A stretch of DNA of 64,000 nucleotides from an uncultured Clostridia bacterium (lineage in GTDB: Bacteria > Bacillota > Clostridia > Christensenellales > UBA1242). Position numbers and translations under genes: made by a program. The notes below the pieces were generated by a model. The model had not been told where the DNA came from. It saw only the letters and a list, made by a program, of their open reading frames with translations, and did no database searches. Positions 12,012 through 30,056 of this stretch are shown here, piece by piece. Numbering within the stretch: the first letter of the stretch is position 1; each line of letters opens with the position of its first letter. Where the stretch lies: the NCBI GenBank assembly GCA_944345365.1, contig CALVMJ010000001.1, positions 75,228 through 139,227 of the forward strand, written 5' to 3'.

Positions 12012-12784
12012 AAGAAAAAATAAAAGACTATCTTAAAAATTTTAATATTTTAGATTATTGGTTGTTGGCTTTTGGTGTTTTATCAATAACAATATCTTCT
12101 ATTATTGTAAAAAGTTCAGCTTTAGCAACAATTTGTAGTATTTTGGGTGTTTTTTATGTTCTTTTATGGGTAAAACGTTATAACATAGGTTTAATTTTTT
12201 GTTTGGCTTATTTGAGCCTTTATATTTGGCAATCTGTCATTTATAAAAATTGGGGCGAAGTTATTCAAAGTTCTTTTTCAATAATTACAGCATTAATTTT
12301 AATTTGTTTATGGTTGTTCAATAAAAAAGAAAAAAAAGCAAAACTCATATCTCAAACAAAAAAAATTACATGGCCAGAATGGATTATCGTTGCAGTTGTA
12401 ACAATTGGCTTCGCTGTGGGATATTATTTTTTGCTTAAACACTTAAACACGCCAAGTTTATATTTTGCTACGGCCAACCTTACAATTTTGACAATTGCGT
12501 TATATTTTATGGTTAGAAAAAACTTTTTAATGTTTGTGTTATTTATTTTATCAAATATTTTGCAAGTTTTTATCTGGTTGCGTCCGGTTTTTCAAGGGGA
12601 ATCTTTTGGAATCGAAAATTTACCAATAGTGTTTTCTTTTATAACTTTTTTTCTTTCAAATATTCGTGGAGTCATTGAGTGGAGAAAGAAAGTTGTTGAG
12701 AGCAAGAAAAATCAATGTGATAAAAAGTTTACTGGTGAACAAAAATGCGATGAATTAGAGAATAAATTAGAAAATTTTGATTAA
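12008..12784 (+). CDS. Putative nicotinamide riboside transporter PnuC-like membrane protein
   Basis: About 7 TM segments and loose resemblance to PnuC (ICSILGVFYVLLWVKRYNIG, LYIWQSVIYKNWGEVI). Start overlaps the tsaD stop. Confidence 0.45.
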   Translation: MKEKIKDYLKNFNILDYWLLAFGVLSITISSIIVKSSALATICSILGVFYVLLWVKRYNIGLIFCLAYLSLYIWQSVIYKNWGEVIQSSFSIITALILICLWLFNKKEKKAKLISQTKKITWPEWIIVAVVTIGFAVGYYFLLKHLNTPSLYFATANLTILTIALYFMVRKNFLMFVLFILSNILQVFIWLRPVFQGESFGIENLPIVFSFITFFLSNIRGVIEWRKKVVESKKNQCDKKFTGEQKCDELENKLENFD

Positions 12785-12800
12785 ATTTTAGGGGGTTAAA

Positions 12801-13988
12801 ATGGAATTATTAGCACCAGCAGGGAATTATGAAAAGTTTTTAACAGCTTTGCATTTTGGCGCAGATGCCGTTTATTTGTCTGGAAAAAGTTTTGGTCTTA
12901 GAGCTTTTGCGGGAAATTTTACAAATGAGGAGATTTTGCGTGCCTGCAAGGAGGCACATTCTCTTAATAAAAAGGTTTATGTGACACTGAACATTCTTGC
13001 AAAAGACATTGACTTTGTAAACTTAAATGAATATCTTGACTTTTTGACGAGTGCAAAAGTTGATGGAGTGATTGCATCTGATGTTGGGATAATTTACCAT
13101 ATAAGGAAGTATGCACCAAACCTAGATGTTCATGTGAGCACTCAGGCAAATGTGACTAACTCAGCTTCTGCCAATTTTTTTGCAGATATGGGAGTGAAAA
13201 GAATAGTTTTGGCAAGGGAACTGTCTCTTTGCGAAATAAAGGAAATAAGAAAAAATTTGGACAAGTCCGTAGAGTTAGAAGCTTTTGTTCATGGGGCTAT
13301 GTGCATATCCTATTCTGGAAGATGTTTGCTTTCAAACTATTTCACGGGAAGAGATTCTAACCATGGGGAATGTGTACAGTGTTGCAGATGGAAATATACC
13401 GTTAAAGAAACTTCAAGAGAAGATGAAAACGAAGTCCAAGAAGATGAAAGGGGAACATATATTTTTAATTCGAAGGATATGAACCTTATTAACCATTTAA
13501 ACGAACTTAAAGAGGCCGGTGTAGACAGTTTAAAAATAGAGGGAAGAATGAAATCTGTTTACTACGTTGCGACAGTTGTTAATGCTTATAAAAAAGCATT
13601 AAAGATGCTACCAAATAAGCCGACAAAAGAAATATGTGATGAACTTGAAAAAACAAGCCACAGAAGATATACTACCGGATTTTTGCTTGGTGATGATGAC
13701 AAGGAGTTTTTAGAAACATCCAATCCTGTGCAAAAAAGTGAATTTATGGGAGTTGTAGTTAAAGAGGAAAATAAAAGATTATATTTAGAGCAAAGAAACA
13801 ACATAAAAAACGGATATGTTTTGCAGGTTTTAAGTCCAAATGACGATGTTTTTAACAAAGAGTTTGTTGTGGAAGATATGCAAAACGAAGACGGAGAGAA
13901 AATTGAAGTTGCAAATGTTGCAAAACAAATTATAAGCATCAAGAGCCCGGGATTAAAGTTGAATGCAGGGGATATACTTAGAAAGTAA
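12801..13988 (+). CDS. Peptidase U32 family protein
   Basis: MELLAPAGNYEKFLTALHFGADAVYLSGKSFGLRA is a typical U32 N-terminus. E..VHGAMCISYSGRCLLS is the signature. Confidence 0.85.
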   Translation: MELLAPAGNYEKFLTALHFGADAVYLSGKSFGLRAFAGNFTNEEILRACKEAHSLNKKVYVTLNILAKDIDFVNLNEYLDFLTSAKVDGVIASDVGIIYHIRKYAPNLDVHVSTQANVTNSASANFFADMGVKRIVLARELSLCEIKEIRKNLDKSVELEAFVHGAMCISYSGRCLLSNYFTGRDSNHGECVQCCRWKYTVKETSREDENEVQEDERGTYIFNSKDMNLINHLNELKEAGVDSLKIEGRMKSVYYVATVVNAYKKALKMLPNKPTKEICDELEKTSHRRYTTGFLLGDDDKEFLETSNPVQKSEFMGVVVKEENKRLYLEQRNNIKNGYVLQVLSPNDDVFNKEFVVEDMQNEDGEKIEVANVAKQIISIKSPGLKLNAGDILRK

Positions 13989-14026
13989 AAAGAAATGAAT
14001 TAATTATATTATTTTTAAAAAACAAT

Positions 14027-14064
14027 AAAACAAGGACTTTGTTTTTGCAAAGTCCTTGTTTTAT
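14027..14064. terminator. Bidirectional terminator between U32 peptidase and ABC exporter
   Basis: 11-bp perfect stem CAAGGACTTTG/CAAAGTCCTTG flanked by A-run and T-run. Confidence 0.75.
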
Positions 14065-14083
14065 TTTGATAGTTTTTAAATTT

Positions 14084-15898
14084 TTATTCTATTTTTTCAG
14101 CATAGAACATACTTTTAAATTTGTCATTTCTTTCGAAAAGTTCGTCAAATGTTCCGATATCTTCAATTTTTCCATTATCCAAGAAGAAAATCTTGTCGAC
14201 ATTTCTTATTGTAGATAATCTGTGAGCAACAATAACTATCGTACTTTTGCCTTTTAAATTGTCTATCGATTTTTTTATGTTTTCTTGTGCAAAATTGTCA
14301 AGAGAACTTGTGCTCTCATCAAAGATAATTATTGGAGAATTTCTCAGTAATGCTCTTGCTATTGCCAGCCTTTGTTTCTGTCCACCAGAAAGCTTTATTC
14401 CACTTTCGCCAACTTTTGTATCTATTCCTTTACTTAATGTTGAGATGAATTCCTTTAAAAATGCGTTTTCAATAGCATAGTCTATCTCTTCCTTTGTTGC
14501 GTCTTTTTTTGATAAGATCAAATTTTCTTTAATTGTCATATCGAATATATAAGGAAATTGATTTACAAGAGAAATTGAAGATCTTAGTGTTTCCTTATCC
14601 AAATCATTAATATTCACGCCATCAATTAAAACTTTTCCAGAATTAACTTCATACATCTTTGACATTAAGTTTAAAATTGTAGATTTGCCAGAACCTGATT
14701 TTCCAACAAAGGCAACGGTTGTGTTTGGTTCAATTTTAAAGGAAAGCTTGTCAAAAATTTTGTTGACATTTTCTATCTTTCTCTTTTTGTTTTTTCTTTC
14801 TTTTAATTCATTTTTTGTTAAAAATTTGTCATTGTTATTTTGTTCGTATTCTACAAATGAAAAGGAAACATCTTTAAATTCAATTTTACCTTTGACATTA
14901 TCTAGGTGCACACTTCCAAATTTTTCACAAACAAATTCATTGTTGTCAAAAAGTGAAAACATTCTCTCACTGCTAACTTTAACATCTAAAAAGATGTCCA
15001 TAATTTTTCCAATACACCAAACAAAGGAAGACAAACGTCCATTATTTGAGTAAATGATCATAAATGAGGCAAGAGTTAAAAGTGAAATGTCAATCATATA
15101 AACGCCTAAAATGAGTAATAATACAGCAAATGTTTCGATTATGAAATTTCTTAATGTCCATGAGTTCATATCTTTAACTTCATAGTTATATGAAGCTTTT
15201 TTATATTCATTATAGTTCATTTTTGAAATCTCACTCAATCTTTCTTCGAGTCCAAGCGATTTAATATCCTTTTCACTCCTAACAATTTCTGTCGTCAAAG
15301 AATAGATTTTATCATTTTTTCTTTTCACAATAAATTTATTTTTTCTATTTCTTTTTCTTCTATGTCTTTCTATTAACAAACATATTAATACTACTACCAC
15401 AATAACTATTGAGATATAGATATTTAATGTCGCTATATAAATAATCATAACAAGAGAAGTTACGCAATCTGTGAGTAGATCAATTAAGTCTGCCAGACGC
15501 CTAACTACATTTTCGGGATCAGTTACAATTCTTTGGACAAAAATTCCCGTTTCGTGATCGGCATAAGTTTTTGAGTTAAGTTTAAAAGCTTGTTTTGCTA
15601 AATCAAGATTTAGATCTGCCATTATTCTGTTAGTATATTTTTGATAAATAAGTCCTGAAAGATACCAGCACATTCTTCTTACAAAAGCAATCCCTGCGAT
15701 TATTGCCAACATTATCATTGCTTCTTTATATAATAAGTATGTGATTTTTTCAATTGCATTAGCAGTCAATATTGTTTGCGCAACGGTGCAAGCTCCTGCG
15801 ATAAGATAAACAAGAATATACATTGATATTCCAAATTTATATTTTGCTAAGTATTGCTTTAATGATATTTTATTTTGTTTATTTATTTTTTTTGACAT
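14084..15898 (-). CDS. ABC exporter, fused permease/ATP-binding protein (MsbA/BmrA-like)
   Basis: N-terminal 6-TM domain. NBD with Walker A GKSGSGKST, signature LSGGQKQR and Walker B IIIFDE. Has a Lys-rich insert of about 30 aa just before the Walker A strand. Confidence 0.9.
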   Translation of the reverse strand: MSKKINKQNKISLKQYLAKYKFGISMYILVYLIAGACTVAQTILTANAIEKITYLLYKEAMIMLAIIAGIAFVRRMCWYLSGLIYQKYTNRIMADLNLDLAKQAFKLNSKTYADHETGIFVQRIVTDPENVVRRLADLIDLLTDCVTSLVMIIYIATLNIYISIVIVVVVLICLLIERHRRKRNRKNKFIVKRKNDKIYSLTTEIVRSEKDIKSLGLEERLSEISKMNYNEYKKASYNYEVKDMNSWTLRNFIIETFAVLLLILGVYMIDISLLTLASFMIIYSNNGRLSSFVWCIGKIMDIFLDVKVSSERMFSLFDNNEFVCEKFGSVHLDNVKGKIEFKDVSFSFVEYEQNNNDKFLTKNELKERKNKKRKIENVNKIFDKLSFKIEPNTTVAFVGKSGSGKSTILNLMSKMYEVNSGKVLIDGVNINDLDKETLRSSISLVNQFPYIFDMTIKENLILSKKDATKEEIDYAIENAFLKEFISTLSKGIDTKVGESGIKLSGGQKQRLAIARALLRNSPIIIFDESTSSLDNFAQENIKKSIDNLKGKSTIVIVAHRLSTIRNVDKIFFLDNGKIEDIGTFDELFERNDKFKSMFYAEKIE

Positions 15899-16130: not shown

Positions 16131-16157
16131 TTATTTTGAAAATCGTTTTTTAATTAT
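16131..16157. repeat. Left copy of 27-bp direct repeat (attL or target duplication)
   Basis: TTATTTTGAAAATCGTTTTTTAATTAT is identical to 27105-27131. Confidence 0.9.
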
Positions 16158-16218
16158 GAAATTATACAATTAGTGTGTTAATGAAACTTAACACACGAAA
16201 GTATAGCTTATTTTTGAG

Positions 16219-16256
16219 TTCTCGTGTAATGAGTTTTCATTATACGAGAATTTTTT
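16219..16256 (+). terminator. Strong hairpin plus T-run just inside the left end of the element
   Basis: 14-bp stem TTCTCGTGTAATGA/TCATTATACGAGAA (one G.T pair), GTTT loop, then TTTTTT. Preceded by a second hairpin at 16173-16196 (9-bp stem GTGTGTTAA/TTAACACAC). Confidence 0.65.
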
Positions 16257-16351
16257 GTTAAAAGGGGGTGATGTTTATAATCTCTAAAAAAGACTTATAG
16301 CAAGAAGTTTCAAGACTTAATGACAAGTATTGTCGTGGTGGAAAAAACAGA

Positions 16352-16564
16352 TTGGTTGTAAGTCAGGCGTATGGGGGTTATCAAGTTTGTATAACTGGTA
16401 AACGCAAAAAGTCCGGCGGTTGGTATAAAAACTCGCTTGGCAGTGGTTGTGCAGATGTTACTTATGGTCATAAGTCTGCAAGAGATAATTTGTCAGAGTT
16501 GTATAGAAGTGATAGCAGAGGTTATTTGCGTTCTAGTATTAAGCACTACAACAAGAGAAAATGA
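16352..16564 (+). CDS. Small basic hypothetical protein (frame continues upstream through an in-frame TAG to an ATG at 16271)
   Basis: TTG-start ORF in the track. The same frame is open back to 16301, and an ATG at 16271 with GGGGGTG upstream is separated from it only by the TAG at 16298. Confidence 0.35.
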   Translation: MVVSQAYGGYQVCITGKRKKSGGWYKNSLGSGCADVTYGHKSARDNLSELYRSDSRGYLRSSIKHYNKRK

Positions 16565-16676
16565 CCCTTTTAGAAAAAACTGAATAAAACTGTAAGCCCT
16601 ACTAAGGTTGTAGGCTCACCCCTAATAGTTGAAGTTAGGTAAAACTAAAATCAAAAATATAAAAGGAAGTAAAGAA

Positions 16677-17045
16677 ATGAAAAACGAAGAAAGAAAGTTA
16701 TTTGTTGAAAGAGAAAGTTTTAAAGGAAGTGACGGCAAGGAATACTGGTCATATATCGTAAAAGGTCAAGTTCGTGGTCGTGATATTAAGGTCGATTTCG
16801 CTCCAAAAGATAAAGGTGGATATGAGCCACTTGATATTGTTTTTGATGTTGCACCAAAAGCAGAACTCGTTATGTCTGACGAAGAAATGGTCGATAGTAA
16901 CGGCAAAGCAACAAAATACACATCATACAAGGTTTTAACAGTTGATGAAGACGGTATGCCTTATGAATGCGGTGTTAAGCCGTCAAGAGATAGCGACAAG
17001 GCTCTTTTGAAAATGCTTTTAAATCAAATTGGTGGTGTTAAGTAA
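16677..17045 (+). CDS. Hypothetical soluble 122-aa protein (candidate ssDNA-binding/gV analogue, speculative)
   Basis: ATG at 16677 has an AAGGAAG RBS at 7-nt spacing. Beta-rich, charged, no TM. Stop overlaps the next start (TAATG). Confidence 0.65.
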   Translation: MKNEERKLFVERESFKGSDGKEYWSYIVKGQVRGRDIKVDFAPKDKGGYEPLDIVFDVAPKAELVMSDEEMVDSNGKATKYTSYKVLTVDEDGMPYECGVKPSRDSDKALLKMLLNQIGGVK

Positions 17046-17311
17046 TGGAAGCTGTCGAGAAATTTAGAAAAGGCTTAAACAAGTTTATTAAAGGTGCGAA
17101 TGAAATGGTAGATGTTTTTTTGGAAGTTACGGAAAAATTTGACGACATAAAGGTTTGCGTTCCTCTTAAAAACATAAAGTCTGTTTCTTCTGAAAAAGAC
17201 GGAACTTGCTTTATAGAAACTGGTGTTGACAAAGACGGAAATGCCACAGGGATTTATTGCAAAGACCCTTATTCGCAAGTTATCTTAAAATTATTAAAAT
17301 ATATTTTATAA
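17045..17311 (+). CDS. Hypothetical 88-aa protein
   Basis: Translationally coupled to the upstream ORF (TAATG), with GGTGGTG SD-like sequence upstream. Confidence 0.6.
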   Translation: MEAVEKFRKGLNKFIKGANEMVDVFLEVTEKFDDIKVCVPLKNIKSVSSEKDGTCFIETGVDKDGNATGIYCKDPYSQVILKLLKYIL

Positions 17312-17328
17312 AGGAGTTTAAAAAAAAT

Positions 17329-17418
17329 ATGAAAAAAATAAATTGGAAATCCGTTTTAACGGGTTGTGCAGTTGTCGTTGTTATGGTTTTACTACTGGCA
17401 ATCTGCATTAAAATATAA
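17329..17418 (+). CDS. 29-aa single-TM peptide (candidate coat-type protein)
   Basis: Not in the ORF track because it is under 60 aa. AAAGGAG RBS. Sequence MKKINWKSVLTGCAVVVVMVLLLAICIKI. Confidence 0.5.
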   Translation: MKKINWKSVLTGCAVVVVMVLLLAICIKI

Positions 17419-17432
17419 CTTGGAGGTTTAAA

Positions 17433-17918
17433 GTGAGTAAATTAAATAGTCATGTTAAAAAAGATAAATGGAAATGGGCAATCACTTTTATATCAATTAT
17501 TTTGATATTGGGTGCTGTTATTGGTTTGTTTTTTGCCCTTGGTCATGTAAATGATACAACAAAAACTCTTACAACTTCTAGTTATTCGATAGGAAGTGTC
17601 GATACAACAACTGGAAAAGCTATTGAGTCAAGACAAAATGCTTATACACATGATATGTATAAAACACAAGATATGAAAATCGTTGTAGATGAAGACGCTA
17701 CTGTTAGCTATAAAGTTGTATTCTATGACGAAGCCAAAGATTTTGTGTCTGCAACTGACAGCTTAAATGCTGATTTTGACAACAATTCTATTCCTGCAAC
17801 AGCAAAATATTTTAGAGTTGTAGTTACTCCAGCAAAAGTTGACGGAGAAAATGTTAATTTAACTATATTAAATATGGGCAAATATGTTGGTCAAATCACT
17901 GTGACTGTTGCTAAATAA
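17433..17918 (+). CDS. N-terminally anchored 161-aa protein, paralog of the next gene
   Basis: GTG start after TGGAGG. TM segment AITFISIILILGAVIGLFFAL. Shared blocks with the 276-aa neighbour: VSYKVVFYDEAKDF vs VSYRIFFYDKEEKY, and AKYFRVVVTP vs AKYCRIVITP. Confidence 0.75.
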   Translation: MSKLNSHVKKDKWKWAITFISIILILGAVIGLFFALGHVNDTTKTLTTSSYSIGSVDTTTGKAIESRQNAYTHDMYKTQDMKIVVDEDATVSYKVVFYDEAKDFVSATDSLNADFDNNSIPATAKYFRVVVTPAKVDGENVNLTILNMGKYVGQITVTVAK

Positions 17919-17941
17919 AAAAATAAAGGAGATTTTTTAAA

Positions 17942-18772
17942 TTGAGTAAACAAAAAATTAAAAAGTCTACATATAAGGTTATTCTTATTGTGTTAGGCTG
18001 TATTCTATTGATTGGTGCTGTAATTGGTCTTGTCAGTCTTTTTGGAGAAAAAGGAAATGAAAAACAAACAACATTATCTACAAATATTTATAGCGTTGGT
18101 GGTTTAACTGAGCAAGGCTCTTATTTAGAAACATCTAGTTCTATTTATACTAAGGAACTAATCGGTTGTATTGGACTAAAAACTGAACTTGTTTTTGATA
18201 ATAGCGTAAGTTATAGAATTTTCTTTTATGATAAGGAAGAAAAATATTTATCTTCTACAGGTAAGTTGACAGGAGATTTTAATAATGCACCTGATTTTGC
18301 AAAATATTGTAGAATTGTAATAACACCAAATGAAGATAAAAACATTAAATGGTATGAAGTAAAAGGCTATGCTAAGCAACTTACAGTTAATGTTGACAAA
18401 AAACAAGTATTTGCCTATGAGAATAATTTGTTTGTTGCAGATAGTTCAAAAGATGGTCATACTGCACCAAATATTGGAGAAAGTATGTTAACAGCTGGCT
18501 CGGCTCTTGAAAATTGTTCTATTAGTGAAACTTTTGAAGTTAAATCATATTCTAAACTTGTCGTTTTTGTTCCAAATAAAACTATTTGTAAATATACAAA
18601 TTTAATTGAAGGAAATGCAAGTCATATTATTACTAAGAAAACAGTTAAAACAATTGACGTTGACGACAGTGGTGATTTAGTTAAAATTGAATTTGATTTA
18701 TCTGCTGGAACTGAATATGCTCAAATAGTTTATGGTCGTGGCTGTGATATACAAATTTATGGTATTAAATAA
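17942..18772 (+). CDS. N-terminally anchored 276-aa protein, paralog of the previous gene with a C-terminal extension
   Basis: TTG start after AAAGGAG. TM segment VILIVLGCILLIGAVIGLVSL. Paralogous domain followed by about 120 extra residues. Confidence 0.75.
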   Translation: MSKQKIKKSTYKVILIVLGCILLIGAVIGLVSLFGEKGNEKQTTLSTNIYSVGGLTEQGSYLETSSSIYTKELIGCIGLKTELVFDNSVSYRIFFYDKEEKYLSSTGKLTGDFNNAPDFAKYCRIVITPNEDKNIKWYEVKGYAKQLTVNVDKKQVFAYENNLFVADSSKDGHTAPNIGESMLTAGSALENCSISETFEVKSYSKLVVFVPNKTICKYTNLIEGNASHIITKKTVKTIDVDDSGDLVKIEFDLSAGTEYAQIVYGRGCDIQIYGIK

Positions 18773-18824
18773 CAATTTGATATTGTGTTAAAATGTGTTA
18801 TAATACTTATGTTTAGGTAAAAAT

Positions 18825-19547
18825 ATGAAAAAAATAATAATTATTATTTTATGTTGTCTTGTAGTTGTTTTTTGTGCAACGTTCTTTTCGACCTTTTTTA
18901 GAAAAGAAACTGAAATAGAAGTAAATTACTCTCAATTAACGTATGTTGCTTTAGGTGATAGTATAACTTATGGTAAAGACGGTATTACTGGGGAAAAAAT
19001 GAATTCCCCATATCCTGAATTAGTTGCAGAAAAATTGAACTTAAAAAGTATCAAAAATTATGGCATAAAGGGCTCTACCTTAGCTGTTAATGATAACGGA
19101 TACGAGCCAATGTCTATTCGATACAATGAAATGGAAAATGCTGATATTGTAAGTGTTTTAGGTGGGGTTAATGATTTCTTTCGTTCTGTCCCTCTTGGAA
19201 CTTTAGGAGATACTAAGAATACTACTGTTTATGGGGCGTTGAACGTATTGGCTTCTGGACTTAAAAAGAAATATACTAACTCTTTTATATTCTTTATGAC
19301 ACCTTTTCAAGTTGTAAATCGAACTACAAATAGTGTTGGATATTCCGTTCAAGATGTTGCGATTGCTATAAAAGAAGTATGCAGTGCATATAAAATACCT
19401 GTTTTAGATTTATATTCTTATGGAAATTTTGAATTTGAGGCAAAGACTAATTCTTTAAGTGATAAAGTTCACCCCTCACAAGAGTTTTTTGAAAAATATA
19501 CTGCTCCACAAATAGCACAATTTATAAAAGACAACTACAAAAAATAA
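18825..19547 (+). CDS. SGNH/GDSL-family hydrolase (esterase) with N-terminal signal/anchor
   Basis: Block I YVALGDSITYG, block III GGVNDF and block V DKVHPS (DxxH). Own promoter-like TTGATA-17-TATAAT at about 18777-18805. Confidence 0.85.
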   Translation: MKKIIIIILCCLVVVFCATFFSTFFRKETEIEVNYSQLTYVALGDSITYGKDGITGEKMNSPYPELVAEKLNLKSIKNYGIKGSTLAVNDNGYEPMSIRYNEMENADIVSVLGGVNDFFRSVPLGTLGDTKNTTVYGALNVLASGLKKKYTNSFIFFMTPFQVVNRTTNSVGYSVQDVAIAIKEVCSAYKIPVLDLYSYGNFEFEAKTNSLSDKVHPSQEFFEKYTAPQIAQFIKDNYKK

Positions 19548-19571
19548 TTTTAATAATGTAGGTGCAAAGAA

Positions 19572-20129
19572 ATGAAGAGAAAGTCAAATAATTCTTTCGC
19601 TACTTTATTGTCGGGTTTAATAATCTTTTTGATTGTTGTTTTGGTCGTTGGTTTTATTTATATAAGGACTGACGGCCTTACAAGCCCATTAAAAAATTTC
19701 TATGTGTCTTATGGAAACGACGACATTATGAGCGATAGAGCAAATTTTGATGTTGTAATTGAAAAAGAGTATAAATTTGACATTACAACAAATATCAACA
19801 TCACTGGCAAAGAAAGCAAATATAAAATTGCAATAGTGCCTAATGATATTGAAAAAACAAACTTTACATTCTCTGCAGACGAAACGCAAGTTGAATATAA
19901 GACAATGGAAAGTTTGGCAAAAGGTTTTTCTATTTCTGCACATGAAGATTACTTTACTTTTATGGCAAATTTGGACTTACCCGAAATTATTGGGTTATAT
20001 TATTCTGATATGACGATTACGGGTTGCCCAACTGCTATTGATAGTGATATACCTTATTTTAGGTTGGTTATTTCTAGTGTAGATAATAGTGAAACTATAA
20101 ATATAAATTTTAGTTTGAAAAGTGAGTAA
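19572..20129 (+). CDS. N-terminally anchored 185-aa hypothetical protein
   Basis: RBS AGGTG. TM segment LLSGLIIFLIVVLVVGFIYI followed by a beta-rich ectodomain. Confidence 0.7.
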   Translation: MKRKSNNSFATLLSGLIIFLIVVLVVGFIYIRTDGLTSPLKNFYVSYGNDDIMSDRANFDVVIEKEYKFDITTNINITGKESKYKIAIVPNDIEKTNFTFSADETQVEYKTMESLAKGFSISAHEDYFTFMANLDLPEIIGLYYSDMTITGCPTAIDSDIPYFRLVISSVDNSETININFSLKSE

Positions 20130-20137
20130 ATAAAATT

Positions 20138-21592
20138 ATGACAAAGACAAGAAAAATACAAATATTATTGTTGACAATAGTATTGATTGTTTCTTGTTTC
20201 TTAGCTGGTTTTACATCAACAATGGGTGTTGTTCATGCGTCAACAATAGATGTTGTCGGTGGTTATACAAATGTTATGGAAGATTTGAAAATGGACACCA
20301 ATTTTGACGCAATGGACTACCCTGTAAAACAAAATGATTATTCGTTGTCGGTTATACAGCTTGCAGAAAGTAGCGACAAAGAAATATTTGTTTATGTATA
20401 TCAACCAAATCAAGAATACGGGAAATATGTTGCGTCAACAATCAATATTTCGACATCTTTACATAATAGAGACAAGATTAAAAATTATAAATTAACATTG
20501 CTTAATTATGACGGGGTGTTTCAAAAATATCTTGTTAATGGTTTAAAAGCACAAGAGGGCGAAACAAGATATTATGATGTTGTTTCAATATATCGTGTGT
20601 TTGACGAAAATATTGACGAGGGGCTTCCAGACGATAACGAAAATACGATTGACGAAGTTGTTTTTAAGGTTGCACAGCAATATACAATTAAAACAGCAGA
20701 AGACGGCAATGTATATATTTCAATGACAGCAACCGAATTTGAAACAATCGCAGTGACAAGTAAATATGTCGGTTTTATGCGTTATAAAGACGGCTGGCAT
20801 TTCTTCCCTAATAACTATTCAATGTGTGATAGCCATTTTGTTGCATTCTCAACCGACAAACCAATTGATAAATTGTATGAGATTGATGTGGCTTATACAA
20901 CACAAACTTACTTGTTTGCTATGATGGGTGCTCCAAATTATAATATTATAGGGCCTGTGTTTATGCCCGAAAATCCCGAAGACTATGTTCAATATGCATA
21001 CTTAAATTGGGAACAACAAGGTGTTTATACTGGAGATGGTTTGTTTGCACATTCTTATAAATGGAATGTTATAGAAACAGCCGAAGATTTTATAAAAAAT
21101 GAAAATGAAAATATGGATAACATGTTTTCTATGGGAATTTTTAATATTGGAACACGTAATAAAATGACCGCAGAAGGGCTCGCAGATATTCAAAATCAAC
21201 AATGGGTTGTGCGTTTTGCTGAAACCGAATATAGAAAGGTCACAACAGGTGATAGTTCAAGTGAAAGTTATACGATTGTCGGAGATGTTTCAATCTTGCG
21301 TTTGGCATTTGAAACAGACGGCGTGTATTATGATTTGCCTGTAATTGATAACAAACAAACCGGTGACGGAAATCCCGATAACGTGCAAACAACAGTGTTT
21401 GAAATTGCTGATTGGTTTAAAATTTTGCTTGCCATTTTGCTTTTAATTTTATTACTTGTTGTTCTTTGGCCTATATTGCCTATTGTATTTAATATTATTT
21501 GGTGGTTGATTAAAGCAGTTATTAAATTTGCTTGGTGGCTAATTTGTTTGCCGTTTAGGTTGTTTAATTCAGTGTTTAAGAAACGAGAATAA
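20138..21592 (+). CDS. Secreted 484-aa protein with cleavable signal peptide and C-terminal double-TM anchor (pIII/spike-like topology)
   Basis: Signal peptide ending VHA-S. C-terminus WFKILLAILLLILLLVVLWPILPIVFNIIWWLIKAVIKFAWWLICLPF. Confidence 0.75.
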   Translation: MTKTRKIQILLLTIVLIVSCFLAGFTSTMGVVHASTIDVVGGYTNVMEDLKMDTNFDAMDYPVKQNDYSLSVIQLAESSDKEIFVYVYQPNQEYGKYVASTINISTSLHNRDKIKNYKLTLLNYDGVFQKYLVNGLKAQEGETRYYDVVSIYRVFDENIDEGLPDDNENTIDEVVFKVAQQYTIKTAEDGNVYISMTATEFETIAVTSKYVGFMRYKDGWHFFPNNYSMCDSHFVAFSTDKPIDKLYEIDVAYTTQTYLFAMMGAPNYNIIGPVFMPENPEDYVQYAYLNWEQQGVYTGDGLFAHSYKWNVIETAEDFIKNENENMDNMFSMGIFNIGTRNKMTAEGLADIQNQQWVVRFAETEYRKVTTGDSSSESYTIVGDVSILRLAFETDGVYYDLPVIDNKQTGDGNPDNVQTTVFEIADWFKILLAILLLILLLVVLWPILPIVFNIIWWLIKAVIKFAWWLICLPFRLFNSVFKKRE

Positions 21593-21601
21593 GGAGATTT
21601 A

Positions 21602-21967
21602 ATGAGGTTAGCGAAAATTAAAAATAGTTATTTGTTTAAGAGTGACAAACCACACGGAAGTCACACTTACGCAATTTACTATGATAAGAAAAACAAAGAA
21701 AATCGAGCTGTTGCCTTAACTCATTTGTATATTAAAGACGAAAAACGATTTAAGCAAGTTCGTAAAGGAAATATACGAATTGAAAAGTTTAAAGAGTTTG
21801 ATGCCCCTAGTGGGGTTCAAAATTATTTTTATAGTAGAAATACTAAAAATAATAAAATCAATTTGAATGATAAATCAAGTGTTCGTTTAATTTCAAAGAG
21901 ATATTTGAGTAAAAATCAGTCAAATAGAATTAAGGCATTTGCTCGAAATGATTATAACAAGAAATAA
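21602..21967 (+). CDS. Basic 121-aa hypothetical protein
   Basis: Strong RBS TAAGGAG. K/R/N-rich. Followed by the hairpin TTCCACTG...CAGTGGAA (about 21976-22008). Confidence 0.65.
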   Translation: MRLAKIKNSYLFKSDKPHGSHTYAIYYDKKNKENRAVALTHLYIKDEKRFKQVRKGNIRIEKFKEFDAPSGVQNYFYSRNTKNNKINLNDKSSVRLISKRYLSKNQSNRIKAFARNDYNKK

Positions 21968-22106
21968 AAAAAAGAATTCCACTGCCCAACTTTAAGATGA
22001 CAGTGGAAAAAGAAATTTAATTTACTTTCGTTGTTAATATTATACGCAATGAAAATAAAAAAGTCAATGGTTTGAACGGAAAAATTAAAAAAAGGTAAGT
22101 AAAGTT

Positions 22107-22202
22107 ATGAAAAAGTTTAAAAATATCTTAAAGGTATTGCTAGTAATTTTAATTTTGTTTGTGGTCGGCTACTTTATCTTTACAATCGGTAAAATTCAAT
22201 GA
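22107..22202 (+). CDS. 31-aa single-TM peptide
   Basis: Not in the ORF track. Sequence MKKFKNILKVLLVILILFVVGYFIFTIGKIQ. Its stop overlaps the next start (ATGA at 22199-22202). Confidence 0.5.
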   Translation: MKKFKNILKVLLVILILFVVGYFIFTIGKIQ

Positions 22203-24430
22203 AATTTAAGGTTTGGTTAAAGAAGAATTATTTACATATAATTTGCGTTTCGATTACACTTGGCTTTATTGCTTGTGCTATTTGGGCTTTCCCTAACGCA
22301 TGTGTAAGAATTAAAGAAAGCTGTGTTGATGTTTGGAACTCTTTAAAGTTTTATGTTAAAGAAATGTTTATGTTTGATTATGATGTAAATCCTACTGTAA
22401 ATAATTATTCAAGTGTAGGTTTTACTCCATTTTTTGGGTTGCCCTCAACTTGGGAAGAATTTACGGTGTCATGGTCAAGCTATTGGAAGATTTGGGCAAG
22501 CAAGGAAAATTTTGTTGGCTATTTAAGTTCTATATCGAGTTTTTTATATAAATTTGCTAAAATTTTTCTTCTTGCTATTATTCCTATAATTTTAATATTG
22601 TATTTACTTTTTAGAATGTATTTGTCAAGGCATAACAATAAATATAACAAAGATAGCAAGCCTTTAAAATTCCATAAATGGCTTGTAAGCAAAACTTACA
22701 CCCCAGTTAAAAATTGGCTTAAAACATTTTTTGACTTTGTTAAAACAAATAAAAAATATTTTGGTTTATGGCTTTTAATTTGGGCTTGGAATTTTAATTT
22801 GATAACAATATTTATTGAATTCTTGGCCTTTTACTTTTACTTTGTTATGTCGTTTGACTTTAAAAATATTTATAGACAGGTATATAAACTCTTTTGTGAC
22901 CTTTCGGTTATGATTTCAACTATGCCATTGTTTGTTTGGCTTATGCTTGGCTTTATGTTTATTTGCTGGCTTAGAAAGAAAATCGCATATCGTCGTTTAC
23001 ATCACATGGAACGCAAAAATTGTGGCTTTATCAATGAGCGGCCTATTGTCTTAATGGTATGTGGCACTATGGGAAAGAAAAAGACAACGGCAATCACTGA
23101 CATGGCACTTTCTCAGGAAACTATGCTAAAAGATAAGGCCTTTGAAAAAATACTTGAAAACGACTTAAAGTTTCCATATTTTCCATGGTGTAATTTTGAA
23201 AATGCTATAAAAGAGGCTATGAAAACGCATAAGATATATAATCTTGCAACTTGTAAAGAATATATTAAAGAACTAGCAAATTATTTTTATATCGGCTTAA
23301 ATACTGACAAACAATCTTGTAAGTCAATAAGACGATATGTCAAGCGAAAATATAATTTGAAATTTAAAAACTTAATCTTTGATTATGATTTTGAAAGATA
23401 TGGTTTATTTTATAACGATAAACTTCAAGTTGTAAGTGTTTGGCAAGTCTTGGAAACTTACGCACAGCTTTATTTTGTGTATATTATTCAATCGAGTTTG
23501 ATTGTTTCAAATTATAGTGTAAGAACTGATAATTTGTTTGATAGTTTAGGAAATTTTCCTATGTGGAATATGGACTTTTTCAAACGAGATAGCAGGCTTA
23601 TTGACGCATACAGCAGACATTCACATATTATTGATTTTGACGCACTAAGACTTGGAAGAAAGGTTATTGAAGATAACCCAAAGAAAGATACTTTTGAGTT
23701 TGGTGTTGTAAATATAACCGAAATAGGAAAAGAAAGAAAAAATCAACTTGAACTAAGGGAAATGAAGAAAAAGGAAGATATAACAAACCAAAAGAATGAC
23801 GGCTTTACTGATTGGCTTAAAATGATAAGGCACTCTGCAACGATTGACAATTATCCTTTTGTAAAAGTTATTTCTGACGAGCAAAGACCGGAAAGTTTAG
23901 GTGCTGACGCAAGAGATTTATTAGATATCGTGCATATCAAAGATACAAGCGAAATTAAACTTGCAATGCCATTTTTCTTTGTGACGGAGCTTATATACTC
24001 TTTTGTGTTTAGTAAGTTTATTGACCTTTATTATAGGTATAGATATATACGCAGTGATAACACTTTGCCTATGTATTTATTAAAATCTTTTACAAGCAAA
24101 TTTAATCATTATTACAAAGGCACTTATAATACCTTTGGATACTCTAAACTTGCTATTCAAGTTGAAAGTGGAACGCAAGACGGACAAATTGAAGATAGAA
24201 AATATTATTTAATGAGCAAAAAGATTTACAGTAAACGATTTTCAACGGATTGTTTTAGTGAGTTTTTTAACAAGAAAAGTTTACAATCAAAATTAGGAAT
24301 TGAAGACTTAAAAGAATATGAAACGGAAAAGGCTACCTTTGAAGAACTGAAAGAACAGAATAGTTATTTTATAAACGATTTAATAAGTAAAGAAAGGAAT
24401 ATGACGGACAAAGATGATATTGATATTTAA
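22199..24430 (+). CDS. 743-aa polytopic membrane protein with central P-loop-like motif (candidate assembly/packaging NTPase)
   Basis: About five TM segments in the first ~270 aa, then PIVLMVCGTMGKKKTTAITDMAL (a non-canonical Walker A-like motif) and a large soluble C-terminal region. Confidence 0.7.
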   Translation: MKFKVWLKKNYLHIICVSITLGFIACAIWAFPNACVRIKESCVDVWNSLKFYVKEMFMFDYDVNPTVNNYSSVGFTPFFGLPSTWEEFTVSWSSYWKIWASKENFVGYLSSISSFLYKFAKIFLLAIIPIILILYLLFRMYLSRHNNKYNKDSKPLKFHKWLVSKTYTPVKNWLKTFFDFVKTNKKYFGLWLLIWAWNFNLITIFIEFLAFYFYFVMSFDFKNIYRQVYKLFCDLSVMISTMPLFVWLMLGFMFICWLRKKIAYRRLHHMERKNCGFINERPIVLMVCGTMGKKKTTAITDMALSQETMLKDKAFEKILENDLKFPYFPWCNFENAIKEAMKTHKIYNLATCKEYIKELANYFYIGLNTDKQSCKSIRRYVKRKYNLKFKNLIFDYDFERYGLFYNDKLQVVSVWQVLETYAQLYFVYIIQSSLIVSNYSVRTDNLFDSLGNFPMWNMDFFKRDSRLIDAYSRHSHIIDFDALRLGRKVIEDNPKKDTFEFGVVNITEIGKERKNQLELREMKKKEDITNQKNDGFTDWLKMIRHSATIDNYPFVKVISDEQRPESLGADARDLLDIVHIKDTSEIKLAMPFFFVTELIYSFVFSKFIDLYYRYRYIRSDNTLPMYLLKSFTSKFNHYYKGTYNTFGYSKLAIQVESGTQDGQIEDRKYYLMSKKIYSKRFSTDCFSEFFNKKSLQSKLGIEDLKEYETEKATFEELKEQNSYFINDLISKERNMTDKDDIDI

Positions 24431-24476
24431 ATAATAGCAGTAGTCGTGTCTGTGGTAAAGTGCGTAAACTCTTTAG

Positions 24477-24588
24477 GAGTTTTCCACTTTTCCAGTTATT
24501 GTTGATTAGTGTGTAAAGTCAAAGACTTTTCCACTTATCAAAGAGTTTTCCATAATTGCACAATTTGTTGTGTGATTGTGGGAAACTC
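24477..24588. repeat. Iteron cluster upstream of rep (candidate double-strand origin)
   Basis: GAGTTTTCCAC at 24477, TTTTCCA at 24488, GACTTTTCCAC at 24524, GAGTTTTCCAT at 24543, and an inverted GTGGGAAACTC at 24578. Confidence 0.7.
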
Positions 24589-24640
24589 GGCAATAACCTT
24601 GCAGACATAAAAACAATATCTTTAAGGAGCATATTTTTTT

Positions 24641-25567
24641 ATGAGAAAAAAACATATTGAAAATGAATTAAAGCCTATAACTTTAAAAAATGACCCATTT
24701 GGTCAGCATCTTAAAATATATCATGACGGCAAGCACTTTGTTGGCACGAGGACTTTTAAGATTGAGAAGAGCAAAACAAACACCAAGTCAAAGTCCGAGC
24801 AAGATGAATATTTTGACAATATGTATTTTGAGGCAGTTAAACAAAATCTAACACATTCTGCTTTAAGAAATTTTTTAAATGACAAAATGCTTGAAAGTTA
24901 TCCTACAATTAAAAATATTGATAGTTATATCGAAAGCCATATAAAAGCGAAGATACATAATTTTTATAGTAGAATAAAACGATTTAAGCGAAAAGCAAAT
25001 CTCAATAAATGGAACTATTTTGTGACAATAACCTATGACAATAAAAAAATGAACTCTAGTATTTTTAAGAAAAAACTTAGAAAATGCTTGTCAAATTTAC
25101 ATTGTCGCAGGTCTTGGAATTATATGGGTGTTTTTGAGCTTTCTCCAACGGAGAATAGGCTTCATTTTCACGCATTGATGTATATCCCTAAATCTGAAAT
25201 GGTGGGAACTATTACTGAAGAAACCAGTTATTCTACAAAGAAAAAAGCAATGCAAACAGCTAAGATAAACTCTTTCTTTGCCGAGAAATTTGGCCGTAAT
25301 GATTTTTCAGAAATTACGGAAGAAGATTTAAAATTTGGTAAGACTATTGCGTATATAACTAAATATCTTTATAAGACAAATGAAAAGATAGTTTATAGTC
25401 GAGGTATTCCAACTGAACTTAGTTTATATATAAACAATGAAGACATAGCAACCGAATATGTCGATTTTGTTGTTAAATTTGTTTTATTCGACGATTGCAT
25501 TGTTGATAATGAATATATTTCTTCAATCAGTTATAAGCCTTTGCAGTATTCGTTTTTAGACGGATAA
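24641..25567 (+). CDS. rep: HUH-superfamily rolling-circle replication initiator (Rep)
   Basis: Motif 1 FVTITYD, motif 2 RLHFHALMYIP (HUH) and motif 3 IAYITKYLYK (Y-x-x-x-Y-x-x-K). This layout matches pC194/phiX174-type Reps. Confidence 0.85.
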   Translation: MRKKHIENELKPITLKNDPFGQHLKIYHDGKHFVGTRTFKIEKSKTNTKSKSEQDEYFDNMYFEAVKQNLTHSALRNFLNDKMLESYPTIKNIDSYIESHIKAKIHNFYSRIKRFKRKANLNKWNYFVTITYDNKKMNSSIFKKKLRKCLSNLHCRRSWNYMGVFELSPTENRLHFHALMYIPKSEMVGTITEETSYSTKKKAMQTAKINSFFAEKFGRNDFSEITEEDLKFGKTIAYITKYLYKTNEKIVYSRGIPTELSLYINNEDIATEYVDFVVKFVLFDDCIVDNEYISSISYKPLQYSFLDG

Positions 25568-25696
25568 TTGGCAATTTTTCTTGTGCATATTCCTTTTTTA
25601 GGTCTATATTATAGGCTTATTTTTTGCGTAAAAAATTCTATATTTATGATAAAAATGAGGTAAAACTTCAAAGAAGTATAATGTAAAAAACAAAAA

Positions 25697-25743
25697 GGGC
25701 GATTTTAAACAAGCGGTTTAGCGTTTAAACGCCCTTTTTTTTA
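25697..25743 (+). terminator. Rho-independent terminator downstream of rep
   Basis: GGGCG(at)TTTAAAC ... GTTTAAACGCCC stem followed by a run of about 10 T. Confidence 0.7.
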
Positions 25744-25769
25744 CATCTTCTGCTGGCTCAATTTTACTT

Positions 25770-25835
25770 ATTAGACGGCACCTTGTCTGCCGTGCGTCAG
25801 CACGGCACTCGTTAATAGACAAGGTGCCGTCTAAT
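25770..25835. repeat. GC-rich nested inverted repeat upstream of the transposase gene
   Basis: Perfect 19-bp arms ATTAGACGGCACCTTGTCT / AGACAAGGTGCCGTCTAAT enclose a 7-bp hairpin GCCGTGC-GTCA-GCACGGC. Confidence 0.85.
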
Positions 25836-25898
25836 GCTCTTTGGGGTATTTACAAAACTCTTGATTATTGCTATAATACTTGAAATTTGGGGGTGGCT

Positions 25899-26900
25899 AT
25901 GAGCAGAAGAAAAAAGGAAAAGAAAGTTTACAAAGTTGCTTATTCCAGTGAGGAAAAGCTTAGAGCTTTAAAGATGTTAAGACAAAATATGTCTTTTGAA
26001 TTTGTCGCACATCGTTATCATTGCACAATTCAAACTCTCTATAGGTGGAGAAGAATGTATGACGGAACGCTTGAAAGTTTAGAGCCGAAATATCATGCAC
26101 CTTATACTCCTCACCCTAATAGGCATACTGACGAGGAACTCAAACATATAAAGGACATGATAAGGCGAAACCCCAATATAGGGCTTAACGAACTTTACGG
26201 CAAGTTGCGTCTTAATTTTTCATATAGACGTAATCCTGTAAGCCTTTATAGGCTGCTAAGAAAGAATGGTTGGTATGCTGACGTAAAGAAAAGGTCGACA
26301 TATAAGCCACAGCCTTATGACACGCCTATACATATCGGCGAAAAATGGCAACTTGATGTTAAGTGTGTTCCTAGAGATTGTTATGTTGGCGAATTTAAAG
26401 AAGAACGCAGATTTTTTCAATATACAGTAATCGACGAGGCAACACGTGAAAGATTTATCTTTCCATACATGGAGCAGATAGCCAATAATACCATTGACTT
26501 TATTAAACGTGCGATAGTTTATTTTGGGTATAAACCAGTGCAAATTCAAACCGATAATGGAAGTGAATTTACATATACAAAGCAAACTCGAAATGATAGA
26601 GAACACCCGTTTGATACTTTCTGCCGATTGGAAAATATCGAGCATAAGACGATAAAGCCAAGGACACCTCGCCATAATGGAAAAGTAGAACGTTCGCATA
26701 GAAATGACAATGAGCGGTTTTATAAGTATTTGCACTTTTATTCTTTTGAAGATTTAAAGTTGCAAATGAAAGCATATTTGCAACGCTCAAACATGATTCC
26801 AATTTCGGTGTTAAAAACTCGTGATAATAAAACAGGTTGGCTAACTCCAAAAGAAAAACGAAAGGAACTTCTTTTGCTTGACTGGGGTGTTATAGAATAA
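25899..26900 (+). CDS. DDE (rve/integrase-core) transposase with N-terminal HTH, IS481/IS3-like
   Basis: WQLDVK (D), QTDNGSEF (D) and PRHNGKVERSHR (E), plus an HTH-like N-terminus (TIQTLYRWRRMY). The upstream TTG at 25887 is also possible. Confidence 0.85.
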   Translation: MSRRKKEKKVYKVAYSSEEKLRALKMLRQNMSFEFVAHRYHCTIQTLYRWRRMYDGTLESLEPKYHAPYTPHPNRHTDEELKHIKDMIRRNPNIGLNELYGKLRLNFSYRRNPVSLYRLLRKNGWYADVKKRSTYKPQPYDTPIHIGEKWQLDVKCVPRDCYVGEFKEERRFFQYTVIDEATRERFIFPYMEQIANNTIDFIKRAIVYFGYKPVQIQTDNGSEFTYTKQTRNDREHPFDTFCRLENIEHKTIKPRTPRHNGKVERSHRNDNERFYKYLHFYSFEDLKLQMKAYLQRSNMIPISVLKTRDNKTGWLTPKEKRKELLLLDWGVIE

Positions 26901-26971
26901 ATTTTTAATCTTCAGTAAAAAAACAAACATATTTTTCAATATGTTTATTTTTTCACATCAAACTTGGCCGA

Positions 26972-26989
26972 AATTCCCCTAGGGGAATT
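26972..26989. repeat. Perfect 18-bp palindrome downstream of the transposase gene
   Basis: AATTCCCCTAGGGGAATT. It is GC-rich relative to its surroundings. Confidence 0.85.
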
Positions 26990-27104
26990 GTTTTGTTTGG
27001 TTTTATTCTCAAAAATCAATGCTTTTCTTCTATTAAATCATATAAATATTAAAATATTTTAATTTTTTTTGAAAATCTATTAAAAAACATTTGACAATTC
27101 TTCA

Positions 27105-27131
27105 TTATTTTGAAAATCGTTTTTTAATTAT
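27105..27131. repeat. Right copy of 27-bp direct repeat (attR or target duplication)
   Basis: Identical to 16131-16157. A partial third copy of its core, TTTTGAAAATC, lies at 27067-27077. Confidence 0.9.
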
Positions 27132-29888: not shown

Positions 29889-30056
29889 AAACTTTTTTGC
29901 AGTATTTTTTTAAAGGGAAATTTGTAATAAAAAAGTAAAAAACATCTTGAAATATGCTTTTGTTTGTGCTATAATATGGCTGGAATTAAAATTATAGTCA
30001 TATGTTGCGATATCTAAGTTATAATGACGATATCTAATTTAAAAGGGGAAATCATT

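Follow-up and report, generated by a model that had tools for sequence, protein, structure and literature searches.

A DDE transposase in place of an integrase in a probable inovirus-related prophage-like element of a spore-forming Firmicute

We analysed a 64,000-nucleotide stretch from an uncultured Clostridia bacterium (assembly GCA_944345365.1, contig CALVMJ010000001.1, positions 75,228 to 139,227), hereafter the window. Positions 16158-27104 of the window probably form a prophage-like element of an unrecognised lineage related to inoviruses, with a DDE transposase replacing the site-specific integrase. A first-pass annotation of the same DNA had proposed an integrated rolling-circle element with inovirus-like gene order and diverged virion genes, a proposal now supported by a family of 272-residue Zot-like ATPases, by synteny and by a homologue of a 484-residue anchored protein. 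The host is a spore-forming Firmicute, as had been supposed, because the window encodes SpoIVA and YqfD. All long open reading frames (ORFs) within the element lie on the + strand, and their tight coupling was borne out: the final A of the TAA that ends the ORF at 16629-17045 is also the first base of the ATG at 17045, and an ATGA overlap lies at 22199-22202. Scans against Pfam and PHROG, together with motif inspection and a search for TTTTCCA copies, recovered the HUH Rep, the iterons, the DDE protein and the SGNH esterase that had been named. The Pfam and PHROG scans agreed with the earlier reading that the element encodes no capsid, portal, terminase or tail protein and no tyrosine or serine recombinase.

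The ends of the element and the enzyme presumed to act on them are as follows.

16131..16157, no strand: left 27-bp target-site duplication, TTATTTTGAAAATCGTTTTTTAATTAT, an exact repeat of 27105-27131 and present as a single copy at the empty site in L092 and L098.
27105..27131, no strand: right 27-bp target-site duplication, an exact repeat of the left copy.
16157..16185, + strand: left terminal inverted repeat, (T)GAAATTATACAATTAGTGTGTTAATG, with ...TTGxTACAAT... and subterminal motifs common to the left ends of the relatives L023, L062, L065 and L083.
27076..27104, - strand: right terminal inverted repeat, reverse complement TGAAGAATTGTCAAATGTTTTTTAATAG, with ...AATTGTCAA... common to the right ends of the same four relatives.
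25899..26900, + strand: 333-residue IS481-like DDE transposase (Pfam rve 1.2e-12, HTH_32, rve_3), reading outward to the right end.

The element is a 10,947-bp block between two direct repeats (16131-16157 and 27105-27131) that are identical at 27/27 positions, as first described; extended to 31 nt, they differ at one position. Contigs of the same species were found through the exact 112-residue protein encoded just to the right of the element. In L092 and L098 the gene for an ABC transporter runs directly into that for the 112-residue protein without the element, and alignment to both window junctions showed one near-identical 27/28-mer, with flanks that differ at few positions. This arrangement, which had been suggested as a check in related genomes, is a true empty site, and the insertion is polymorphic between strains of one species. 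The same insertion is present in other contigs (L094, L100, L101, L107-L109). The 11-kb block, flanked by genes for the ABC transporter and PcrA, is a real mobile insertion, repeat-flanked and polymorphic rather than a fixed chromosomal locus.

Four relatives with an IS481-like DDE gene (L023, L062, L065 and L083) have exact flanking repeats of 28, 26, 27 and 28 bp, respectively. With the window element these make five independent insertions (26-28 bp), and all five repeat sequences differ. The earlier reading of the 27-mer as an att junction was therefore abandoned, each insertion having its own repeat sequence. Imperfect terminal inverted repeats just inside the duplications are common to all five elements, and within each of them a subterminal block covaries between the left and right ends. 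Because unrelated 26-28-bp repeats adjoin shared terminal inverted repeats, the repeats are target-site duplications and the whole 11-15.5-kb unit transposes. The transposase, whose start codon was taken from the gene call in L094, matched the NCBIfam IS481 model at 2.7e-49 with 168 bits, under the model's cutoff of 224. Members of the IS1202 subgroup of the IS1202 family are reported to produce 27-28-bp duplications with a transposase that is just distantly IS481-like. The present elements resemble them in their 26-28-bp duplications, their distant IS481-like enzyme, ends starting with TG and a second conserved terminal block about 20 nt in. A precedent for long target duplications on the IS30 side is IS1630, an IS30-type element with duplications of 19-26 bp. 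IS1202 and IS1630 are both the size of an insertion sequence (IS), whereas the same chemistry here moves 7-15.5 kb of phage-like genes.

The DDE enzymes of a second group of relatives belong to the true IS30 family (206-209 bits against the NCBIfam IS30 model, cutoff 80); placement in the ISTde1 subgroup, considered for the length of the duplications, was dropped since they score in this way. Among 23 candidate flanking repeats of 15-19 nt in these relatives, 19 (each 15-17 nt) abut the shared termini TGTAAAGTTTTA / TGAAAAGTCAAG. The left terminus reads TGTAAAGTTTTAyAAT and the right, as reverse complement, TGAAAAGTCAAG; here too the subterminal blocks covary. Repeats of 15-17 bp depart from the short 2-3-bp target duplication typical of the IS30 family. 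Elements of the two DDE classes have similar termini, the right terminus of the window element sharing GTCAA with the IS30-type relatives, and the two enzymes have just the DDE core in common.

Circle or dimer intermediates of IS30-type elements are expected to have abutted ends separated by a 2-bp spacer. End-to-end junctions were found in six assemblies (L013, L014, L120, L121, L123 and L124), with a 2-bp spacer in 6/6. In L014 two copies of the element lie head-to-tail, the right end of one joined to the left end of the other. In L013 the right end occurs again at the start of the contig, giving right end, 2 bp and left end in succession, and those 2 bp are the host bases that flank the right end. 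The remaining four were true junctions recovered by a pattern scan of metagenome contigs for a right end, a gap and a left end. The L121 contig (ULVV01036025.1, 11,821 bp) has a 43-nt terminal overlap, so that it forms a complete circle of 11,778 bp, closed at the junction. These junctions may represent circle or dimer intermediates; a tandem chromosomal array is also compatible with the assembly data. The corresponding circle junction predicted for the window element would read ...GACAATTCTTCA + a few bp + GAAATTATACAATT...

The replication module lies immediately to the left of the transposase gene.

24641..25567, + strand: 308-residue HUH rolling-circle Rep of the phiX/gpII class (PF23343 REP_ORF2-G2P 5.4e-10; PHROG 942).
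24478..24552, + strand: four TTTTCCA iterons (copies at 24480, 24488, 24527 and 24546), a candidate Rep-binding/origin region.
25691..25838, + strand: 148-nt two-hairpin element between rep and the DDE gene, defined by covariation, DNA fold and a covariance model.

Rep scored 39.9 bits against PF23343 (cutoff 27.8), which makes it a gpII-type Rep as in Tubulavirales, and it carries the motifs FVTITY (residues 126-131), HFH (175-177) and YITKY (238-242). The iterons sit 90-160 nt upstream of the rep start codon. TTTTCCA occurs 19 times in the whole 64 kb, and the probability of such clustering is about 3e-5 after correction; as DNA, the iteron region is 70-84% conserved in L008, L011, L012 and L014.

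Hairpin 1 of the 148-nt element has the invariant loop AAGCGGTTTAGCG, and hairpin 2 consists of a long bipartite stem followed by TAATGCT. In an alignment of 14 sequences, 94.2% of cells pair, compared to 78.6% in shuffles (0/500 as high), and compensatory change was seen in 26/35 pairs against 36-53% in slid controls. Folded as DNA, the element reaches -45.1 kcal/mol (z = -10.6). A covariance model found it on the + strand in about 60 loci of both DDE classes, immediately 5' of the DDE gene in every locus where such a gene was detected, with far lower scores on the minus strand. An Rfam scan returned no family within the whole 11-kb insertion. Like the ssoA origins of Firmicute rolling-circle replication (RCR) plasmids, the hairpin region lies downstream of rep and forms extended, strand-specific hairpins over about 150-160 nt, and TAGCGT in the loop of hairpin 1 recalls their CS-6 motif. 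Unlike ssoA, it contains no clear RSB motif, and the covariance model did not match pT181 ssoA (palA). We infer from its structure and position that the element may be a complementary-strand origin, a packaging signal, or both.

A link to filamentous phages comes from a large ATPase gene upstream of rep and from the anchored protein encoded before it.

22199..24430, + strand: 743-residue membrane-anchored P-loop ATPase, putatively a derived pI/Zot-like protein (motifs, AlphaFold2 model, profile alignment).
20138..21592, + strand: 484-residue protein with a signal peptide and a C-terminal double-helix anchor (transmembrane (TM) segments 4-22, 418-436 and 437-455).

The 743-residue protein has four TM helices at its N-terminus (about residues 1-260), and positive-inside loops place the C-terminal 480 residues in the cytoplasm. 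The P-loop-like motif previously noticed is a Walker A sequence, GTMGKKKT (289-296), for which the family consensus is the canonical GxMGxGKTT. Further motifs are a Walker-B-like VVNITE (503-508), RH (544-545) and DEQRP (560-564); K295, E508 and R563 are invariant in the family. An AlphaFold2 model built with 122 homologues reached a pLDDT of 94.8 and a pTM of 0.90; an earlier model from 35 close homologues (pLDDT 63, meaningless Foldseek matches) was discarded. In the good model a strand, P-loop and helix (284-324) precede a helical insertion, a strand leading to the invariant ITE (506-508) and a strand leading to DEQRP (560-564). Foldseek searches with it gave weak matches, all to ASCE P-loop ATPases (STIV2 B204, HerA, A32-like and one Zot). 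The N-terminal TM block had been considered atypical. The four helices are indeed present, and the worry is eased by the P-loop protein of SpV1 and ORF3 of plasmavirus L2, which are built likewise. After the ATPase core, residues 586-617 form a hydrophobic helix, MPFFFVTELIYSFVFSKFI, a possible counterpart of the one TM segment located after the ATPase domain of canonical pI.

The link to Zot came through a relative from a sister lineage. In L121, whose DDE gene is of the IS30 type and which shares with the window element the 122-residue (66% identity), 88-residue and Rep genes as well as the termini, a TM-less ATPase of 272 residues (g272) replaces the 743-residue protein, just downstream of the gene for the signal-peptide/C-anchor protein. 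This smaller ATPase matched PHROG 197 'Zot-like toxin' (1.9e-10) and PHROG 1041 (9e-4), scored 19.5 bits against Pfam Zot (cutoff 20.3), and shares 30% identity (E 1e-21) with the protein annotated as Zot in Bajarodino virus 12. Its family (A8; 802 members) aligned with the 743-residue family in hhalign at a probability of 90% and E 1.6e-6 over residues 498-582, a region that spans the Walker-B strand, the RH motif and the DxQRP...D...R.L strand. The two ATPases hold the same gene position in elements that share other genes and ends. Profile alignment and synteny together indicate that the 743-residue ATPase is remotely, though specifically, related to Zot/pI. A direct match to Zot/pI models, sought for the protein and 60 diverse family members, was absent from Pfam and PHROG, the only matches being sporadic generic AAA ones (Pfam, PHROG and NCBIfam). 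An hmmsearch of the family profile against PDB sequences returned nothing, and hhalign comparisons with single pI, Zot-like and VP8 sequences matched at the Walker A motif only.

The 484-residue protein is homologous to a 541-residue protein (8035-9660) of Bajarodino virus 12 (E 8e-37 against the phage collection, 9e-55 pairwise), and both carry an unusual WWLIK...WWL..LPFR anchor. In Bajarodino virus 12 the gene for the 541-residue protein lies just upstream of Zot, with a short ORF of 59 codons between them, and the gene before it matches an N-anchored protein of L121. Given the ATPase and anchored-protein homologies, a module of N-anchored proteins, a signal-peptide/C-anchor protein, a small peptide and a Zot-type ATPase is shared with genomes deposited as inoviruses. 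The 484-residue protein is a candidate pIII-like adsorption/terminal protein.

Gene order was compared across 79 fetched genome loci. A co-oriented order was conserved: 122-residue, 88-residue, N-anchored paralogues, (esterase), 185-residue, 484-residue, 121-residue, 31-residue, ATPase, Rep and DDE. IS30-family enzymes were present in 49 of these loci and IS481-like enzymes in 7; none had both.

The nearest record among the inoviruses (Tubulavirales) is Bajarodino virus 12 (PQ006185.1, circular, 9.8 kb, rodent faeces, deposited as Inoviridae). Like it and other inoviruses, the window element has a one-strand morphogenesis module ending in a Zot/pI-type ATPase, and in both the homologous 480-540-residue anchored protein lies just upstream of that ATPase. 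A gpII-class HUH Rep and small TM peptides are further inovirus-like traits, and a chronic prophage-type lifestyle is plausible for the element. The differences are these: the ATPase has 743 residues, with a four-helix N-terminal membrane domain of 260 residues and about 200 residues inserted between Walker A and B; an SGNH esterase is present; and a spore-former serves as host. The window element integrates by a DDE transposase with a 27-bp target-site duplication, whereas an integrase and a repressor are annotated in the Bajarodino record. A 2019 survey anticipated inoviruses with transposases and with Firmicute hosts, so the kind is already known.

Partial parallels were found in two other groups. 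Vespertilioviruses (Plectroviridae), whose mode of integration the element parallels, lack a Rep; the genome that they package is taken to be a transposition intermediate in circular form, and an IS30 transposase is thought to make the circle. The Spiroplasma phage SpV1-R8A2B of this group has, like the window element, a one-strand genome, a P-loop protein with N-terminal TM segments and a signal-peptide/C-anchor protein (715 residues), and like the window's relatives it has an IS30-family transposase. Its P-loop protein matched Pfam Zot very weakly (E 0.15). Plectroviruses infect wall-less hosts with genomes of 4.5-8.3 kb, in contrast to a 10.9-kb element of a spore-former with both Rep and transposase. 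Comparison with SpV1 and MV-L1 proteins gave no significant similarity, apart from 29% identity to the IS30 enzymes found in relatives of the window element; members of Plectroviridae are expected to exceed 50% similarity in their maturation and coat proteins. The IScream phages (PMC12823448) are IS30-bound tailed prophages of gut Clostridia, >10 kb in length, with structural and lysis genes and IS30 at both ends. They share with our elements gut Clostridia hosts, an outward-reading DDE gene at one end in place of an integrase, and detected circular forms; the window element differs in having one DDE gene (IS481-like), an RCR Rep and no tailed-phage genes.

Several observations weigh against the inovirus-related reading. 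No particles or single-stranded DNA (ssDNA) of the element were seen; the signs of a circular ssDNA genome packaged in a filament are indirect, namely the HUH Rep, the strand-specific hairpin element and the circular contig of a relative. No major coat protein was identified, and the small TM peptides are basic at the N-terminus, not the C-terminus; the element is also large for an inovirus. No Pfam or PHROG model matched the 743-residue protein itself, Foldseek with its model found nothing in PDB below E 0.17, and the sole BFVD match under E 1e-3 (2.7e-4) was an unnamed 269-residue protein. The Zot link of this ATPase rests on 67 aligned columns plus synteny. IMG/VR, which the first-pass annotation had proposed to search, yielded just 2 contigs with the ATPase family, and none for its Zot-like sister family. 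Taken alone, the window's own left and right terminal pair is weakly significant (69/2000 shuffles reached it). The circular junction, likewise proposed as a check, was found in IS30-type relatives, including the L121 circle; among the contigs searched no circular, permuted or excised form was seen for the window copy, its close relatives or any IS481-type element, which appeared as integrated copies only, and five contigs with the window transposase all show the identical integrated site.

The absence of a recognisable coat protein and the near absence of the family from virus collections would suit a non-viral integrative rolling-circle replicon, a plasmid/transposon hybrid that the DDE enzyme shifts inside one replicon or from one to another and that Rep maintains as a copied-out circle, with the membrane proteins serving as cargo or as a contact- or vesicle-based transfer device. 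Transposon anatomy is proven for the element, and its Rep and sso-like hairpin with the TAGCGT loop resemble those of Firmicute RCR plasmids, the failure to match pT181 ssoA speaking on the other side. Evidence from the ATPase and its neighbours makes this explanation unlikely. The link of the ATPase lies with Zot-like proteins rather than with the FtsK/TraB, VirD4 or VirB4 families: conjugation-type Pfam models (FtsK_SpoIIIE, VirD4/TraG-type and VirB4-type) matched 0/60 diverse family members, and a Pfam scan of the element's proteins found no conjugation ATPase (FtsK/TraB, VirD4, VirB4) or relaxase. Database homologues of the 484-residue protein come only from a circular genome submitted as an inovirus and a contig submitted as a bacteriophage, and the order of N-anchored proteins, signal-peptide/C-anchor protein, small TM peptide and ATPase fits filamentous phages. 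An integrated RCR plasmid, which the first-pass annotation had also raised, is likewise less likely.

A virus with a pleomorphic, membrane-enveloped particle of the plasmavirus/pleolipovirus type, in which the N- and C-anchored proteins would sit in the envelope and the genome would be condensed by the basic 121-residue protein, is rather improbable. It could account for the unusually high share of membrane-anchored proteins, the strongly basic protein and a size that is large for an inovirus, and plasmavirus L2 has both one-stranded genes and an ORF3 with N-terminal TM segments followed by a P-loop, as in the window ATPase. Direct comparison with the proteins of L2 and HRPV-1 (including VP4 and VP8) found nothing similar beyond the Walker A motif, leaving this earlier alternative without sequence support, and the specific homologies point instead to Zot-like ATPases and a genome deposited as Inoviridae. 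That the window copy is a defective or domesticated remnant, fixed and immobile at one site, is very improbable: the shared insertion site of 5/5 contigs with the exact transposase and the lack of junction reads are set against intact ORFs throughout, a 27/27 duplication, conspecific strains that lack the insertion while their flanks differ at few positions, and active-type junctions in relatives.

Taken together, these results favour the prophage-like, inovirus-related element, and we infer for it a cycle of copy-out, rolling-circle replication, coating and export of the + strand, and paste-in. The transposase would first copy out the element, yielding a double-stranded circle whose ends abut. 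Rep would then nick near the iterons and roll off + strands, and the hairpin element would prime complementary-strand synthesis, mark the strand for packaging, or both. The DNA may be coated by the 122-residue or the 121-residue protein. The membrane ATPase, together with the 29- and 31-residue TM peptides and the N-anchored proteins, would extrude a non-tailed, probably filamentous particle tipped by the 484-residue protein, and the anchored SGNH esterase could help the particle to traverse or recognise the Gram-positive wall. The circle would be pasted into the chromosome of a new cell with duplication of 27 bp.

A broader interpretation, offered tentatively and with somewhat more doubt than belief, is that the family is an unrecognised lineage, of family rank, of non-tailed viruses of spore-forming gut Clostridia. 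In these viruses copy-out/paste-in DDE transposition with 16-28-bp duplications would be coupled to rolling-circle replication, the transposition circle serving as the replicative form, and a fusion of a polytopic membrane domain to a pI-type ATPase, 740 residues long, would be the export machine that carries a filament across the thick Gram-positive wall without a secretin. The lineage, its 743-residue ATPase, whole-genome transposition with long target-site duplications by two interchangeable DDE families, and the conserved hairpin element all appear to be new. Filamentous phages of Gram-positive bacteria, especially of gut anaerobes, are barely known, as is the route by which they exit through a cell wall with no secretin. 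The elements also offer a concrete, testable example of a small Rep-encoding element whose integration module consists of IS-type transposases of two interchangeable families, with clean footprints.

Homologues of the 743-residue protein form 3,130 clusters at 90% identity, all unnamed, with 1,215 representatives at 50%, and 460 stretches were confirmed in 185,579 species-representative (one-genome-per-species) bacterial genomes. Carriers are nearly all metagenome-assembled genomes (MAGs) of the gut Clostridia/Christensenellales type. One is cultured, Pumilibacter intestinalis CLA-AA-M10 (L044), which makes experiments possible. The ATPase family is all but absent from INPHARED as well as IMG/VR; being very common yet essentially missing from IMG/VR and GenBank phage records, it is missed by standard virus finders. 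Among the papers searched, none described this family or the Bajarodino viruses.

The only GenBank phage record with the 743-residue ATPase (46% identity) is L001 (MT835493.1, 57 kb, 'UNVERIFIED: Bacteriophage sp.', human faeces), which also has homologues of the 122-residue, 185-residue, 484-residue and Rep proteins, in order. Three contigs of 7.0-7.5 kb (L003, L004 and L005) are minimal variants that keep the 31-residue peptide, the ATPase (713 residues), Rep, the hairpin element and IS30, with small soluble proteins in place of the anchored/secreted proteins and the 122-residue protein; these variants of ~7 kb may be satellites or defective derivatives. In L002 two different elements lie head-to-tail. 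L110 and L111 encode a 740-residue ATPase homologue and a 168-residue ORF followed by minus-strand genes, with no Rep or DDE within the contig, indicating that the replication/integration module is not universal. Single MAGs with two different family elements (L034/L036, L025/L041, L028/L081, L030/L040 and L066/L082) suggest polylysogeny; L030 is of the IS30 type and L040 of the IS481 type, within one MAG. L121 carries at 10684-11379 (- strand) a gene for an SprT-like metalloprotease (Pfam 2.8e-6; PHROG 6361 1e-25) that is absent from the window element.

The remaining features of the element, from left to right, are as follows.

16174-16197 and 16216-16253, + strand: two hairpins in the left non-coding region, from direct sequence view; the second is a 17-pair terminator-like stem.
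16352..16564, + strand: 70-residue basic protein, isoelectric point 10.0; 43-66% identity in L012, L029, L022 and L068.
16677..17045, + strand: 122-residue soluble acidic protein (138 residues from an upstream TTG); 44-79% identity in 19 aligned relatives.
17045..17311, + strand: 88-residue soluble protein, translationally coupled to the 122-residue gene; 35% identity to an L121-encoded protein.
17330..17418, + strand: 29-residue peptide with a hydrophobic core, from translation; candidate coat/assembly protein.
17433..17918, + strand: 161-residue N-terminally anchored protein (TM 12-30), a paralogue of the 276-residue protein; present in 30/79 related loci.
17942..18772, + strand: 276-residue N-terminally anchored protein, a paralogue of the 161-residue protein.
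18825..19547, + strand: 240-residue N-anchored SGNH/GDSL esterase, accessory (PF13472 1.3e-19; PHROG 5240 6e-38); 12/79 loci.
19572..20129, + strand: 185-residue N-anchored protein, from sequence conservation and TM prediction.
21602..21967, + strand: 121-residue strongly basic protein, isoelectric point 10.3; 43-70% identity in 8/79 loci, before or after the ATPase gene.
22107..22202, + strand: 31-residue single-TM peptide, ATGA-coupled to the ATPase gene; 48-79% identity, directly upstream of it in 11/79 loci.

The 122-residue protein had no family match and no informative Pfam or PDB match; to call it a candidate ssDNA-binding protein is a guess from its position. The 29-residue peptide, previously described as a single-TM peptide, does have a hydrophobic core and falls below the Kyte-Doolittle TM threshold used; its conservation was not detectable by tblastn. 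The 31-residue peptide is also found in the 7-kb variants. Neither small hydrophobic peptide gave a family match, and both lack the usual C-terminal basic tail. Any matching of the small proteins to gV, gVII, gIX and gVIII is guesswork. PHROG 5240, matched by the esterase, is a tail-fibre C-terminal esterase. The intergenic region 21968-22106, between the genes for the 121-residue protein and the 31-residue peptide, is conserved as DNA (85% to L014, 77% to L029), unusually strongly for a non-coding stretch here.

Outside the element, a second strain polymorphism lies beside the insertion site. Relative to window positions 12008-15898, the conspecific contigs L093, L095, L096, L097 and L099 are without the NMN-transporter and ABC-transporter genes that the window and L092/L098 have, and in them just a 50-residue ORF separates the peptidase U32 gene from the 112-residue gene. 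Elsewhere in the window, three very large + strand ORFs (30024-33974, 34887-36845 and 49743-53666; 1316, 652 and 1307 residues) had no Pfam match at E 1e-5 and lie among housekeeping genes (PcrA, LigA, EF-G and EF-Tu).

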